64,000 nt of DNA from a bacterium. Its GTDB lineage: Bacteria; Patescibacteriota; Minisyncoccia; Sungbacterales; HO2-52-23. Every line of letters starts with the position of its first letter. The stretch's first letter is position 1. Positions 57,272 to 63,993 of this stretch are shown piece by piece. Under the pieces are notes generated by a model. The model did no database searches. It had not been told where the DNA came from and worked only from the letters and a program-made list of their open reading frames with translations. The stretch lies in NCBI GenBank assembly GCA_030697525.1, contig JAUYPW010000013.1, positions 2,293-66,292 of the forward strand, written 5' to 3'. The position numbers and the translations under genes are program-made.

Positions 57272-58240
57272 TTAAGCCATCATGGCTCTGACCTCTTCTA
57301 TTATCTGCTCGGTGCTGGGGTGATAATTTTTTAGCAAATAAGGTGTGGCCGGAGCCGGAACTTCTGGAAGGGCGATTCGTTGGGGCTTTCTATCTAAATA
57401 CAGATTCTCGCATACCAGAGCAATGACTTCCGCAGAGACCCCGAAAGACCGCCACCCGGTATCGGCTACTATTAGCCGTCTTGTTTTAGCTACGGACTCA
57501 AGAATTACTCGACTATCCAAAGGACGAATAGAGCAGAGATCTATTACCTCAACACTTACTTCGTTTTCAAGTTGCTCGGCAACCTCCAATGCGTTTTGGA
57601 GCACAGCCGATACGGCAACGATAGTAATGTCACTTCCGACCCACGCCACCCTTGCTTGACCTAATGGAATCTCATAAAGCTCTTCTGGAACATGATCCTT
57701 TTGTTCAAACAAGGCTCGATGGTAAAGAACAATCACCGGATCGTCGTCGGCAATGGCTGAAAGCAACAATCCCTTCGCGTCGTAGGGCGTGGCTGGCATT
57801 ACTACCTTTAGACCCGGGATATGGGCAAATAAGGACTGAAGACTCTGGGAGTGCTGGGCTCCTTCGCCGGGTTTTCTAGCTATAAAACTCACCACAGTTA
57901 AAGGCACTTTATGGACACCAGCTGAAATATATCTGAATTTTGCCGCATTATTTACCAGCTGGTCCATGGTCAGCAACATAAAGTCATTACGCTGATGAAA
58001 AAGCACTGGGCGAAGACCGTCCATGGCAGCGCCTATGGCAATGCCGGTAAGCCCGTTTTCCGAAAGGGGGGTGTCAATCACCCTTTGGGGGCCAAAACGC
58101 TTAAAGGAAGGCAAGATCGTGCCATATATGCCGGTTATGTTATCAACCCCTTCACCCATAAGAAGTACTCTTGGGTCTTCCATGGCTTGGACCAGTCCAT
58201 CGGCTATGGCCTGAACGTAAGTCAATTGGCGATCTACCAT
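57272..58240 (-). CDS. thiamine-diphosphate enzyme beta subunit (transketolase C-terminal / 2-oxoacid dehydrogenase E1-beta-like)
   Basis: QLTYVQAIADGLVQAMEDPRVLLMGEGVD...RVIDTPLSENGLTGIAIGAAMDGLRPV is the typical E1-beta / transketolase Pyr domain. Confidence 0.8.
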   Translation of the reverse strand: MVDRQLTYVQAIADGLVQAMEDPRVLLMGEGVDNITGIYGTILPSFKRFGPQRVIDTPLSENGLTGIAIGAAMDGLRPVLFHQRNDFMLLTMDQLVNNAAKFRYISAGVHKVPLTVVSFIARKPGEGAQHSQSLQSLFAHIPGLKVVMPATPYDAKGLLLSAIADDDPVIVLYHRALFEQKDHVPEELYEIPLGQARVAWVGSDITIVAVSAVLQNALEVAEQLENEVSVEVIDLCSIRPLDSRVILESVAKTRRLIVADTGWRSFGVSAEVIALVCENLYLDRKPQRIALPEVPAPATPYLLKNYHPSTEQIIEEVRAMMA

Positions 58241-59184
58241 TGGTACAACTCCTTTTCTTCGGGCTCCGGGCTCGATTTAGCAAAATCAACCGCTTCCGCA
58301 ATTTCCGCGTTAATTTGTTCCGTCATCAGCGCAAAGTTTTTTTGGTTGATTAGGGCGCCTCCGAGCCTGTCGCTCAAACGCAGCAAAGGACATTTTTTTC
58401 GCCACATATCCCCTTCTGCTTCCCAGCGGTAGCCCAGATGCCAATCCTCTCCGGGTCCCCAATGTTCTTTTAGCCGGTAAGTCTTAGCTTCTAAAAACGA
58501 TGGTCCTTGGCCAGAAAGAGATCGGCCGATCATCTTCAAAGTCATCTCATATACACTCTCCACATCGTTTCCATCCACTGTCTCGGCGTAGACACCGTAA
58601 CCGGACAGGCGAGAAGCAATTTGGTCATTGGGTTGTCTTTTAATAATGTGAGAATGAGTTGCGTATAAATTATTCTCACACACAAAAATAACCGGCAGAT
58701 GATGTACTTGAGAAAAGTTTAGACTTTCCCAAAAAACACCTTCTTCAACTGCGCCATCTCCAAAGAAAGCAACAGTCACTCGTCTGATTCCTTTCAGTTG
58801 CGCGGAGAAAGCGGTACCCACAGCAATCGGAATACTTCCGGCAACTATAGGCAGAGACAAGAAAACGCCAGCAGAAGGTTCAAAAAGATGCATTGAACCG
58901 CCCTTTCCCCTGGAACAGCCACCTACTTTGCCCGCCAATTCGGCGTACATTTTCTTGAGACTTCCGCCCTTAGCCAGATAATGTGCGTGGCACCTGTGGG
59001 TTGAAACTATCAAGTCTTCTTCGGCCAGCGCCTGGCATACTCCCACAGCCACAGCTTCCTGACCGGTGGAGAGATGCATCAGCGAGCGTATTTCATTCGC
59101 GTGCCAAAGTTCAATCAATTTTTCTTCCGCTAGTCTGATTCGCAACATTTCGCGGTAAAACTGGCTAAGTAATTCTTCTGTCAT
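58234..59184 (-). CDS. thiamine-diphosphate enzyme alpha subunit (E1-alpha / transketolase N-terminal-like, TPP-binding)
   Basis: The TPP-binding region is [12 protein letters not shown]...[14 protein letters not shown]...GKGGSMHLF, with GDGAVEEG. It overlaps the beta-subunit gene by 7 nt. Confidence 0.8.
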   Translation of the reverse strand: [316 protein letters not shown]

Positions 59185-59268
59185 AACCTTCTCCTTTCTC
59201 GCAGATTGTCAAAAAACCACCCCAATTATAGTTTTCTTAGAATACATTTTTTATCAAAATTTGTAAAC

Positions 59269-59297
59269 TTGACAACAATAGCATAAGCTAGTAGATT
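59269..59297 (+). promoter_or_regulatory. sigma70-like promoter TTGACA - 17 nt - TAGATT, third member of the extended promoter family
   Basis: TTGACAACAATAGCATAAGCTAGTAGATT matches TGACAAGTTTAGCATAAACTAGGTAGTAT (22752) at 22 of 29 positions. The SD GAAAGGAG lies ~50 nt downstream, before the ATG at 59358. Confidence 0.45.
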
Positions 59298-59357
59298 ATA
59301 AACAGGTCTAAGTAATTAAATATTGAGGGTTAATCCACCACTCTCTTAGAAAGGAGA

Positions 59358-62086: not shown

Positions 62087-62091
62087 TTTAT

Positions 62092-62838
62092 CTATTTAAA
62101 TAATTCAAAATGGATATTTCTTTTAGGAATTTTCTTTCTTGATAAGAAAGCGGACATATCATGAACAAAATGTGAACCGCCACAGAGATAAAAATCAGCA
62201 GTTTTGTCAAAATTTACCTTGTTTAGGTGTGAGGCAAACTCTGAAGTAATGCCGGTTCCTGTTTCAGACTCCTTTAAGAAAATGGAGTAGTTAAAATTAT
62301 TATAGATCTTTCTTAGTGTAACTAACTCATCCTTTAAAAATAATTCTTTTTTGTTTTGGACAAAAAAGAAACACCATAGTTTCGTGCTAACTTTTTTTAC
62401 TTCAAGTAAATCATAGATCATTGACCTCAAAGGAGCAATTCCAGTACCGGAAGTTAAGAAAAAAATTGTGTGAGACAAAGTTTTTATCCTAAAAGAGCCC
62501 TTTGGGCCACAAAATTGAATTGGTGAGCCCAACTCTACTCGTTCAAAAAAATCTGAGGCTACACCACCGGCGGTTATTTTAACCAATAATTCTAAAAAAT
62601 AGGGTTCCTTTGGGGAAGAGGCTATAGAAAAAGGGCGGTCAACAAATATACTGCCAGCTGGGATTTTCAAAACAATATACTGCCCAGCACGAAAATTAAT
62701 TTTCTTACGATCGGCAAGATGTAAGCGTACTATAAGTACAGTTGGAGTAAGATGCCTTTTTTTTTCAATAATCGCGGTGAAATAACGTGTCCTCATAGCC
62801 CCCGTTTTAATCTCCTGAAAACATCTCTTATTAACCAC
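62092..62838 (-). CDS. ferredoxin-NADP+ reductase-like FAD/NAD(P)-binding oxidoreductase (no Fe-S domain)
   Basis: The FAD-binding motif is RPFSIASSP (RxYS-type) and the NAD(P) motif is LTSGTGIAPLRSM. It ends with CGGSHFV, an FNR-fold C-terminus. Confidence 0.7.
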   Translation of the reverse strand: MVNKRCFQEIKTGAMRTRYFTAIIEKKRHLTPTVLIVRLHLADRKKINFRAGQYIVLKIPAGSIFVDRPFSIASSPKEPYFLELLVKITAGGVASDFFERVELGSPIQFCGPKGSFRIKTLSHTIFFLTSGTGIAPLRSMIYDLLEVKKVSTKLWCFFFVQNKKELFLKDELVTLRKIYNNFNYSIFLKESETGTGITSEFASHLNKVNFDKTADFYLCGGSHFVHDMSAFLSRKKIPKRNIHFELFK

Positions 62839-63761
62839 ACAACATATAAGCCCGGAATCTTTGAGGCAAAAAAGTTAAACCAGTAGCGATTAGTGGCATA
62901 ACCTTTGGTAATACTTGCGGGTGGATTGGTATGTGTTCCAATAAGAATATCTCGTGATTTCCGATGGCAATGAAAAAACAGCGTGGGAAATGTATGACCG
63001 CGGTGATGTACTACTACACATCCACGGCTATCAGTTTCTTGTAGTAGTCTTACGCCGCGCTCTCCAAATATCTCATCAACATCAATAACAAATGTACCAT
63101 ATGGTCCCACTGATATCTCCGAACCAGGTACGCTTTTTCCACGCAAGTTGCGCAACTGCGGCCTAAGAGTAACCACATCGGCGTAGCCAGGCTCTGAAGA
63201 ATGATTGAAAAAGGTAATCAGGGTTTTTTTCTCCGGTGTGCTAATAACCGCGGGACAGTACATAAGATATTGCTGATTTTCTTTGCGACCACCCACATTG
63301 AGAATTTTTAACGCGCCCAATCCAATATGACAAGCGCTTTTTGTCACTGACGACGACCAGATACTGACGAAATCTCTCTGAGAGAGATCTTCGGTCATGA
63401 TGTCTATAGGATGGACGACGCAGAAGACGCTTCCTCGGAACTGAAAAATTCCAATTTTTTGAAGTTCACTCTTGACATTAAGTCTAACCGATTGACCCGG
63501 AGCTAGGGTATGTATCTCGGGTACAAAATTTGGCACCTCTTTTCCATCAAGATGAAACATAAGAAGAAGCACCTCTTCACGTCCCACGCTGGGATTCTGA
63601 TAAATAAATTCACAGTCCTGGTAGGGTTTTTCAAGGTGGACATAACTGGAGAATAAACATTTATGTTCTTGTTTGAGAAGAGGATCCAGCAACTGTTTAT
63701 AGTTAGAGTAACTCATAAATTCTTTAATTATTACCAAGAACTTGTCTCTAAAGATGTTCAC
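62793..63761 (-). CDS. hypothetical protein (322 aa), His/Cys-rich C-terminal segment
   Basis: It has no recognisable family. It overlaps the FNR-like gene by 46 nt, in the same operon as the radical SAM and MTase genes. Confidence 0.4.
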   Translation of the reverse strand: MNIFRDKFLVIIKEFMSYSNYKQLLDPLLKQEHKCLFSSYVHLEKPYQDCEFIYQNPSVGREEVLLLMFHLDGKEVPNFVPEIHTLAPGQSVRLNVKSELQKIGIFQFRGSVFCVVHPIDIMTEDLSQRDFVSIWSSSVTKSACHIGLGALKILNVGGRKENQQYLMYCPAVISTPEKKTLITFFNHSSEPGYADVVTLRPQLRNLRGKSVPGSEISVGPYGTFVIDVDEIFGERGVRLLQETDSRGCVVVHHRGHTFPTLFFHCHRKSRDILIGTHTNPPASITKGYATNRYWFNFFASKIPGLYVVWLIRDVFRRLKRGL

Positions 63762-63993
63762 CCATAATAGCCTCCCCGTTCGAAAATATTATAAACGGCT
63801 TAGAAAGAAAATTTTCTCCAACAACTTTAAGGCCAAATGGTTTATCTTGAATATGGTCTGCAAGAGAGGGGTAACTATCAAATAAATCAAGTAGGTGACA
63901 CTGTCCCGGCCTCATTGAGGGTACTTGATAAACCCGTTCATTATTTTCAAAATTGATAAACGTCAACGATGCCTTTGCACAGGAAGGGTGCAA
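63748..63993 (-). CDS. hypothetical protein; window-truncated ORF, no start within window
   Basis: The ORF continues to the window edge and overlaps the downstream gene by 14 nt. It could be a separate gene or the N-terminal part of the 62793..63761 protein (frameshift). Confidence 0.25.
   Translation of the reverse strand: MHPSCAKASLTFINFENNERVYQVPSMRPGQCHLLDLFDSYPSLADHIQDKPFGLKVVGENFLSKPFIIFSNGEAIMGEHL

Follow-up and report, generated by a model that had tools for sequence, protein, structure and literature searches.

Positions 57,272 to 63,993 of the window, by which we mean the whole 64,000-nucleotide stretch that was analysed of the 67.5-kb contig JAUYPW010000013.1, carry on the minus strand a run of genes for a split thiamine diphosphate (ThDP) enzyme, a radical S-adenosylmethionine (SAM) enzyme, a methyltransferase, a flavin reductase and two proteins without recognisable family. 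The host is an uncultivated bacterium, and the closest relatives of its proteins come from Patescibacteria. An earlier note on this DNA had described the run as a single tailoring cassette of six genes. The open reading frames (ORFs) that it listed are all present where it placed them, its domain calls hold against Pfam and NCBIfam, and the gene content of the region is thereby directly established. The explanation favoured here is that the run consists of two unrelated glycan-tailoring modules, designated B and A, which follow one another head to tail in a surface-polysaccharide island, both encoded on the minus strand; taken together with the roles proposed below for both modules, we regard this explanation as somewhat probable.

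Module B spans positions 57272–61147. It encodes an E1 beta-like ThDP subunit (57272..58240, minus strand, 322 aa) with the domains Transket_pyr (E = 3e-29) and Transketolase_C (E = 1.5e-28), an E1 alpha-like ThDP subunit (58234..59184, minus strand, 316 aa; Pfam E1_dh, E = 2e-61) and a radical SAM enzyme (59939..61147, minus strand, 402 aa; Radical_SAM, E = 1e-14; SPASM, 33.7 bits with a cut-off of 21.5). The genes of the two E1 subunits overlap by 7 nt. Module A is separated from the radical SAM gene by a gap of 132 bp and extends from position 61280 to the window edge and past it. Its genes, which overlap or are 5 nt apart, encode a class I SAM-dependent methyltransferase (MT; 61280..62086), an FNR-like flavin reductase (62092..62838) and the proteins unkB (62793..63761, 322 aa) and unkA, of which the last 83 codons are within the window (63748..64000); all four are on the minus strand. 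A contig identical to the window (L001) runs 1.5 kb past the edge and contains the rest of unkA and, about 100 bp further on, the portion of a B12-binding radical SAM gene that encodes its C-terminus. The truncated ORF of the earlier note does run off the window, and with the extension the full protein has 268 aa.

The separation into two modules was deduced from co-occurrence. We collected 66 non-redundant loci encoding relatives of the radical SAM protein and searched them for the window proteins with tblastn. The radical SAM protein gave 70 matches in the fetched loci, E1 alpha 30 and E1 beta 24, while matches of MT, the FNR-like protein, unkB, unkA and the ORF orf169 were restricted to the window's own contig, and none was obtained from the remaining radical SAM family loci covered by the scan. 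Conversely, the quartet of Module A genes was found together in four other distinct loci (L078, L079/L083, L080 and L082), and these contain neither a radical SAM nor an E1 gene. Both patterns are direct observations. Because they separate, the FNR-like protein belongs with unkA, unkB and MT and not with the radical SAM enzyme, and since Module A recurs without a radical SAM gene, the FNR-like reductase is not what supplies the radical SAM enzyme with electrons, a function that had been considered for it. The complete set of six genes was not found in any of the other loci, and the description as one cassette is therefore not supported. The modules also differ in G + C content, with values of 0.46–0.49 for the genes of the radical SAM enzyme and both E1 subunits and of 0.35–0.36 for those of MT and the FNR-like protein, compared to about 0.40 for the whole window. 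The higher values of Module B hint at a separate acquisition.

The radical SAM enzyme features the core motif CNHRCTFC (CX3CX2C), and its SPASM match is above the Pfam gathering score. Homologues numbered 1445 in the search. In an alignment of 36 relatives, the invariant cysteines are C42, C46 and C49 of the core and, in the C-terminal half, only C297, C316, C359 and C363. The seven-cysteine SPASM motif, indicative of two auxiliary [4Fe-4S] clusters, was not observed in this alignment; the four C-terminal cysteines fit one auxiliary cluster in a predicted Twitch-like domain. The previous classification as a SPASM-type enzyme thus stands with regard to the Pfam match and has to be corrected with regard to the clusters. 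All NCBIfam equivalog cut-offs (170–650 bits) are missed, with matches of up to 63 bits; examples are DesII (43.4 vs. 450), viperin (54.9 vs. 180), MoaA (35.1 vs. 284) and anSME (20 vs. 484). The top match, which is weak, is a maturase of a tungsten-cofactor oxidoreductase. When profiles were searched against solved structures, MoaA, BlsE, DesII, BtrN and viperin ranked above the peptide maturases. Judged from sequence comparison, these results support an enzyme that would act on a small molecule or sugar and is not a housekeeping protein. This is in line with the earlier proposal of an unusual sugar or glycan-tailoring chemistry, as the relatives are found in sugar gene clusters and no equivalog is reached.

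The ThDP-binding motif of the E1 alpha-like subunit is intact and reads GDG-x26-NN in the translation (expected form GDG-x(24–27)-NN). The best NCBIfam match of this subunit is TIGR03182 with 287.6 bits (cut-off 393.85) and that of the beta-like subunit is the pyruvate dehydrogenase (PDH) E1 beta model NF006667 with 288.2 bits (cut-off 321), both of which are below the respective cut-off. The solved structures closest to the alpha-like subunit are the E1 alpha subunits of PDH and of branched-chain keto acid dehydrogenase. No E2 or E3 gene is located on either side of the pair, including the 1.5 kb past the window edge with the rest of unkA and the B12-binding radical SAM gene, and a conserved cluster of E2-like neighbours is absent from all 17 related loci of the E1 type. 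The E1-type subunits encoded next to radical SAM genes in other loci share 45–69% identity with those of the window. Since the scores are below the PDH cut-offs and E2/E3 neighbours are lacking, the pair, as far as its sequence can tell, is no ordinary dehydrogenase of pyruvate or acetoin. Neither such an E1 with E2 and E3 just outside the window nor a housekeeping radical SAM enzyme, the two outcomes that the earlier note had set against its own reading, was thus found.

The two enzymes of Module B belong to a conserved neighbourhood. Within 7 kb of the radical SAM gene, a gene of the ThDP alpha type is present in 45 of the 66 loci and one of the beta type in 41. The split ThDP enzyme is of the E1 type in 17 loci, and a split transketolase occupies the same position in 28. 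Considering the 61 loci with at least 2.5 kb of downstream sequence, the alpha gene starts no more than 300 bp past the stop codon of the radical SAM gene in 17 and no more than 1.5 kb past it in 32. The usual gene order is a GmhA-like SIS gene, the radical SAM gene, (a short-chain dehydrogenase/reductase, SDR), ThDP alpha, ThDP beta, (a glycosyltransferase family 2 (GT2) or RmlD-like gene), a second radical SAM paralogue, an HldE-like nucleotidyltransferase-kinase and a nucleoside triphosphate (NTP)-transferase. GmhA-like SIS genes and HldE-like nucleotidyltransferase-PfkB genes were each found in 28 of the loci, and heptosyltransferase-like genes of family GT9 in 10. Frequent additional genes encode GT9-like proteins, B12-dependent radical SAM enzymes and a small radical SAM protein. 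The HldE-like neighbours, examined in one neighbour cluster and in L036 (12402–13898), carry the adenylyltransferase-like domain at the N-terminus and the PfkB kinase at the C-terminus, the reverse of E. coli HldE. Scores in L036 are below the cut-offs (gmhA 113.6 vs. 209, rfaE_dom_I 198.8 vs. 345). Beside Module B of the window itself, no isomerase, HldE-like or kinase gene is present.

Loci of this family were obtained from Patescibacteria, several classes of Proteobacteria, Campylobacterota, Nitrospirota, Omnitrophota, Planctomycetota, Elusimicrobiota, Fibrobacter, Lachnospiraceae, Chlorobiaceae and Acidimicrobiia, and from two DPANN archaea. The latter are metagenome-assembled genomes of Nanoarchaeia and Woesearchaeota (L018 and L061), in which the radical SAM gene has ThDP or B12 radical SAM neighbours. 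In a locus from Yanofskybacteria (L002, 21156–21224), an E1 pair is lacking, and roughly 10 kb separate the radical SAM gene from one for a ThDP enzyme of the acetolactate synthase type (619 aa). Enzymes of this type (YerE-like) are the other enzyme type known to add two-carbon branches (PMC4425429).

On the same strand and 89 bp downstream of the E1 beta gene is the gene of a GT39/PMT_2-like GT-C glycosyltransferase (55755..57182, minus strand), which has a PMT_2 match at the gathering score and is named glycosyltransferase family 39 by NCBI. A Wzx flippase gene is likewise found downstream of the E1 pair. It is probably this glycosyltransferase that uses the modified sugar.

Between the radical SAM and E1 alpha genes, an ORF of 169 aa, orf169, is read convergently (59358..59867, plus strand). 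It had been listed earlier as a gene of unknown function; the ORF exists, and its status as a gene is doubtful. Since it matches no Pfam or NCBIfam family and no tblastn match was obtained in the other fetched loci scanned, orf169 may not be a gene. Its position in the closest relative (L005) is occupied by an unrelated gene for a Rossmann-like protein of 311 aa, which is on the operon strand. In 12 loci (L005, 10581–11516; L002, 11277–12281; and about 10 others), the radical SAM gene has as its neighbour a gene for a protein of 311–378 aa with only a weak ArgZ-like Rossmann match, which is absent from the window; a tblastn search of the window's intergenic gap for a remnant of the gene from L005 and L002 yielded no trace. 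The pattern scan for promoters and terminators gave site counts not above the expectation from shuffled sequence. Its sole notable site, a consensus match only, is a terminator-like hairpin (59899..59927, minus strand) with a 12-bp stem and a T-run, located 12 nt past the stop codon of the radical SAM gene. Rfam gave no match anywhere in the window, so no riboswitch is present in the gap.

As regards the proteins of Module A, the full length of unkA was set by alignment with homologues, which places its start at position 704 of L001 (704–1510); gene callers gave 196 or 205 aa. MT has 268 aa with a divergent N-terminal extension. The NCBI call of 174 aa is too short, since proteins in which unkB and MT are fused have a linker to which the N-terminal part can be aligned. 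The Methyltransf_11 match of MT (E = 1e-9; 39.4 bits vs. 21.2) is confined to the C-terminal half of the model (positions 44–94 of 95), with VGPRNEG as a divergent motif I. The FNR-like protein has either 234 aa, if it starts from ATG at 62796, or 248 aa, if it starts from GTG at 62838. It consists of FAD_binding_6 and NAD_binding_1 and has no ferredoxin or other Fe-S domain, and the motifs RPFS and GTGIAP were read from its sequence. Its best NCBIfam matches are to LuxG/Fre and to BenC, MmoC and AntC, which supply the reductase of multicomponent oxygenases, and all equivalogs remain below their cut-offs (e.g. LuxG 66 vs. 340). For unkB, no match to Pfam or NCBIfam was obtained. No hydrophobic segment with a transmembrane-like score is present in unkB or MT, and membrane anchoring of these two is not supported.

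Profile searches with unkA and unkB against the sequences of the Protein Data Bank (PDB) returned only compositional zinc-finger noise and the methyltransferase part of fusions. Structure prediction, which had been suggested for the two unknown proteins, gave models that resemble the beta-sandwich of TM1070 and the Anabaena sensory rhodopsin transducer (ASRT); unkA was modelled via its homologue P0138, and unkB appears to be mostly beta. Conserved residues are N56, N155, N186, S188, Y193, D195, D227, H253, H256 and H277 in unkB and C60, C72, H126, H146, H149, H155, C182, H189, C192, C219, H234 and H267 in unkA. From their sequences, both proteins appear to belong to no described family.

The family of unkB is very rare, with 7 relatives in a search of 5.8 billion sequences and 55 representatives among 1.84 billion; a metagenome scan found two loci. 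For unkA, eight relatives were returned (nine proteins including the window's own product). Relatives of unkA and unkB are always accompanied by an FNR-like gene, which is located beside them in L078, L079, L080, L082 and L083, and usually also by an MT gene. The gene order elsewhere is FNR-unkA-unkB-MT or unkA-unkB-FNR-MT. Homologues of MT (49–70% identity) adjoin unkB in L080 and are fused to it in L079, L082 and L083. Fusions of unkB and MT were observed in at least seven family members, namely P0136 and six of the ten representatives scanned (P0146–P0148, P0151, P0153 and P0154).

Three of the four other distinct loci have nonulosonic-acid genes within 10 kb of Module A. L078 holds the module in the middle of a nonulosonic-acid operon with WbuX/HisH/HisF-type amidotransferase genes, a CMP-sugar synthetase, GFO/IDH/MocA oxidoreductases, NeuB, a NeuC-type epimerase, a formyltransferase, DegT and a PseB/LegB-like dehydratase. 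In L079/L083, Module A directly follows the dehydratase of a nonulosonic-acid operon. L080 and L082 have it in glycan clusters with Wzx, Wzy-like and glycosyltransferase genes, and a PMT_2-like gene is near the module in L082. We conclude that Module A is a rare, separate module that usually occurs with nonulosonic-acid clusters of the legionaminic type.

Genes for both kinds of sugar are present elsewhere in the window, in disagreement with the earlier statement that the stretch stands apart from any standard sugar pathway there. A gene set for nonulosonic acids of the legionaminic/neuraminic (Leg/Neu) type (43512..54262, plus strand; Pfam and NCBIfam matches) encodes HisF/HisH-like proteins, a WbuX amidotransferase, a CMP-sugar synthetase (CTP_transf_3), a GFO/IDH/MocA oxidoreductase, NeuB, NeuC, a PglD-like protein, NUDIX, DegT and a PseB/LegB-like dehydratase. 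NeuB_NnaB (432.7 vs. 399.65), NeuC_NnaA (388.3 vs. 235.9) and WbuX (365.3 vs. 203.2) exceed their NCBIfam cut-offs. The NeuB-type synthase, the hydrolysing 2-epimerase of the NeuC type and the CMP-sugar synthetase are thus all present, which places the set in the Leg/Neu type. A divergent set for activated sugars of the heptose type (21151..29619, plus strand) comprises a B12 radical SAM gene, GmhA-like and GmhB-like genes, a transaldolase/FSA homologue, DegT, an NTP-transferase, GT2, DAO and an HddA-like kinase. Its best NCBIfam matches are heptose enzymes, all below the equivalog cut-offs (gmhA 95.8 vs. 209, HddA 149.8 vs. 600, GmhB 93 vs. 178, HddC 71 vs. 300). With the B12-binding radical SAM enzyme beside the GmhA-like isomerase and the transaldolase/FSA homologue, this set looks like a heptose- or octose-type pathway, and we take it to resemble the LmbR/LmbN logic of octose synthesis.

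Two further regions of the window were noted. Positions 37176–40951 encode a 931-aa fusion of pyruvate-kinase-like, PUA_2, ATP-sulfurylase and adenosine phosphosulfate (APS)-kinase parts, followed by a sulfotransferase, which suggests a sulfated surface glycan. In L078, an APS kinase, an inositol-phosphatase-like gene and a sulfotransferase with 47% identity adjoin the same nonulosonic-acid genes. Several large proteins encoded at 784–8611 contain PG_binding_1 and no other recognisable domain, and a similar PG_binding_1 protein is found near Module A in L082.

From gene content and context, we infer the substrates, the order of steps and all chemistry of both modules. In Module B, the radical SAM enzyme would abstract a hydrogen atom from an activated sugar of the heptose type and oxidise or dehydrate it to a carbonyl; it could make, or further process, a keto or radical intermediate. 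ThDP-bound hydroxyethyl or dihydroxyethyl carbanions require a carbonyl acceptor. The E1-like enzyme may decarboxylate pyruvate and add a hydroxyethyl or acetyl two-carbon unit to this carbonyl, giving a branched or chain-extended higher sugar, which the downstream GT-C glycosyltransferase would then install in the glycan. In Module A, electrons could pass from the NAD(P)H-dependent flavin reductase to the Cys/His-rich unkA and on to unkB with its conserved His/Asp set. There they would serve a redox step, e.g. hydroxylation or deoxygenation of a nonulosonic acid or its N-acyl group, and the associated MT would methylate the product. Context, the fusions and residue conservation are the basis of this redox and methylation chemistry of Module A, which we consider a doubtful proposal.

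Several observations weigh against these assignments. Neither module has an enzyme with a characterised close relative, and context is the source from which substrates and reactions are drawn. The heptose-type genes of the window are 28–36 kb away from Module B and score below the NCBIfam cut-offs, and about a third of the radical SAM family loci have no ThDP gene within 7 kb. In the window, 755 bp with the convergent ORF and the terminator-like hairpin separate the radical SAM and E1 genes, which may not be co-transcribed here. In addition, the product of the SDR dehydratase-like gene of many related loci could alone make the keto acceptor, with no part for the radical SAM enzyme in that step. 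As for Module A, L082 has no nonulosonic-acid gene within 8 kb of it, and in the 17 kb examined of L080, genes of the NeuB or NeuC type were not detected. The two AlphaFold2 models of this module are of low to moderate confidence (pLDDT values of 61.5 and 74.7), the TM1070/ASRT fold has no known catalytic role, and just one histidine is strictly invariant across 26 unkB relatives.

A different order of events in Module B has to be considered, in which the ThDP enzyme builds the skeleton of a sugar phosphate before activation, as do DXS, transketolase or LmbR in octose synthesis, with isomerase, kinase and nucleotidyltransferase acting next and the radical SAM enzyme later. The 28 loci in which a split transketolase replaces the E1 pair, beside a ketose-aldose isomerase and a kinase/nucleotidyltransferase, are in line with this order, as is the transaldolase/FSA homologue in the heptose-type set of the window, which indicates that skeleton-building enzymes are recruited to such clusters. 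However, by established ThDP chemistry an E1-type enzyme with pyruvate would give a 1-deoxy-2-ketose, which a GmhA-like isomerase cannot turn into an aldose. The tight adjacency of radical SAM and ThDP genes, within 300 bp in 17 loci, suggests consecutive steps, and isomerase and kinase genes are missing beside Module B of the window. Skeleton building before activation fits the transketolase-type loci and fits the E1-type loci poorly, and for Module B of the window we consider it unlikely.

Less likely still is that all six to eight genes make one unusual branched, deoxy or methylated sugar, with the FNR-like protein donating electrons to the radical SAM enzyme. The genes are close together on one strand, any radical SAM enzyme depends on a reductant, and no ferredoxin is fused to the FNR-like protein; within the same island, the product of one module could in principle also be the substrate of the other. 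Co-occurrence has already largely refuted this possibility, as the scan of the other radical SAM family loci turned up no homologue of FNR, MT, unkA or unkB, and four further distinct loci carry the quartet with neither a radical SAM nor an E1 gene. The step in G + C content and the 132-bp gap at the module boundary point in the same direction.

It is very improbable that a conventional pyruvate or acetoin dehydrogenase E1 is located in the island by chance, along with a radical SAM enzyme that serves housekeeping or cofactor maturation. For both subunits, PDH E1 alpha and beta are indeed the best matches in NCBIfam and the PDB, and the top NCBIfam match of the radical SAM protein is the cofactor maturase mentioned above. 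The scores nevertheless fall below the PDH equivalog and subfamily cut-offs and, for the radical SAM protein, far below all equivalogs; E2 and E3 are missing on both sides, and the pair is kept beside the radical SAM family in glycan clusters of many phyla. A system for ribosomally synthesised and post-translationally modified peptides, in which the radical SAM/SPASM enzyme modifies a precursor peptide and MT and the reductase tailor it further, had been named as an option on account of the SPASM match, and weak NCBIfam matches to sactipeptide and ranthipeptide maturases also exist, but it is the least credible reading, as no small conserved ORF for a precursor peptide is encoded near the radical SAM gene, the sole nearby unassigned ORF (orf169) has no relatives, four and not seven C-terminal cysteines are conserved, the neighbours in the 66 loci are sugar enzymes, and the solved peptide maturases score below MoaA, BlsE, DesII and BtrN, the nearest solved relatives acting on sugars or nucleotides.

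Returning to the two modules, a literature search found no published description of either of them or of a cluster of radical SAM, split-ThDP and heptose genes. A radical SAM gene has been mentioned in the capsule locus of Campylobacter jejuni; it is unrelated to this family (PMC8743553). To our knowledge, the chemistry of the surface glycans of uncultivated bacteria such as Patescibacteria, Omnitrophota and Nitrospirae is almost unknown.

That heptose genes, a radical SAM enzyme and a split thiamine enzyme occur side by side across dozens of lineages suggests a widespread, uncharacterised sugar modification, and the two enzymes are soluble. For Module A, the MT fusion and the nonulosonic-acid synteny give a functional handle on two families of hypothetical proteins so rare that billions of sequences yielded only tens of representatives. 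The case also shows that what looks like an operon in a glycan island can be a mosaic of independent modules, a point that bears on pathway prediction. It is possible, if tentative, that one or both modules embody new enzymology. Equally tentatively, Module B and Module A may jointly represent a new two-enzyme route to C–C bonds on heptose-type sugars and a new three-component redox system decorating nonulosonic acids of the legionaminic type, respectively. If this holds true, a radical enzyme would make the acceptor for a ThDP-dependent two-carbon addition, leading to branched or nine-carbon sugars unknown from cultured organisms, and an FNR-like reductase would feed two new beta-sandwich families, the second of which is coupled to a methyltransferase.

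Compared to known systems, the E1 pair resembles AviB1/AviB2 of avilamycin and Pau11/Pau12 of paulomycin biosynthesis, split PDH-E1-like pairs that are implicated in the addition of a two-carbon branch from pyruvate to keto-sugars (PMC4425429). In both cases, a split E1 alpha/beta-like ThDP pair is part of a sugar cluster without E2 and E3. By this analogy, the role in two-carbon transfer that the note had assigned to the pair is plausible. The likeness is drawn from gene content. AviB and Pau proteins act in actinomycete antibiotic pathways on 4-keto-hexoses, AviB1/AviB2 together with the non-haem iron enzyme AviO2, whereas the pair of the window is located in a surface-glycan island and is kept beside radical SAM and heptose-type genes.

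BtrN and DesII are radical SAM enzymes with an auxiliary cluster that act on aminocyclitols and TDP-sugars, and they show that such enzymes can turn secondary alcohols of sugars into ketones. The radical SAM protein shares with them the CX3CX2C core and the C-terminal auxiliary motif of four cysteines, and both are among its best matches to solved structures. However, the similarity is confined to the radical SAM core (profile E = 1e-6) and the genomic context differs. The nucleotide-heptose pathways GmhA/HldE/GmhB and GmhA/HddA/GmhB/HddC are echoed by related loci with GmhA-like SIS and HldE-like genes beside radical SAM and ThDP genes, and by the GmhA-, GmhB-, HddA- and HddC-like genes of the window. 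They differ in that all scores are below the equivalog cut-offs, that the domain order of the HldE-like protein is reversed and that the window genes are at a distance of 28–36 kb.

The FNR-like protein shares FAD_binding_6 and NAD_binding_1 with the reductases BenC, MmoC and AntC, with Fre/LuxG and with E3 (AscD) of 3,6-dideoxyhexose synthesis, and candidate metal-binding partners are encoded beside it. It differs by having no [2Fe-2S] domain, and the putative partners unkA and unkB fall into no known oxygenase or dehydrase family. TM1070 (PDB 1nc7) and ASRT (2ii7), to which the models of these partners were compared, are single-domain proteins of about 115 residues without known enzymatic function; identity is 6–19%, no relationship was detected at the sequence level, and unkA and unkB have two to three times that length. 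Taken together, and with all scores below the equivalog thresholds, the parts of both modules resemble known classes, namely E1-like branching enzymes, radical SAM enzymes of the Twitch type, flavin reductases and class I methyltransferases.

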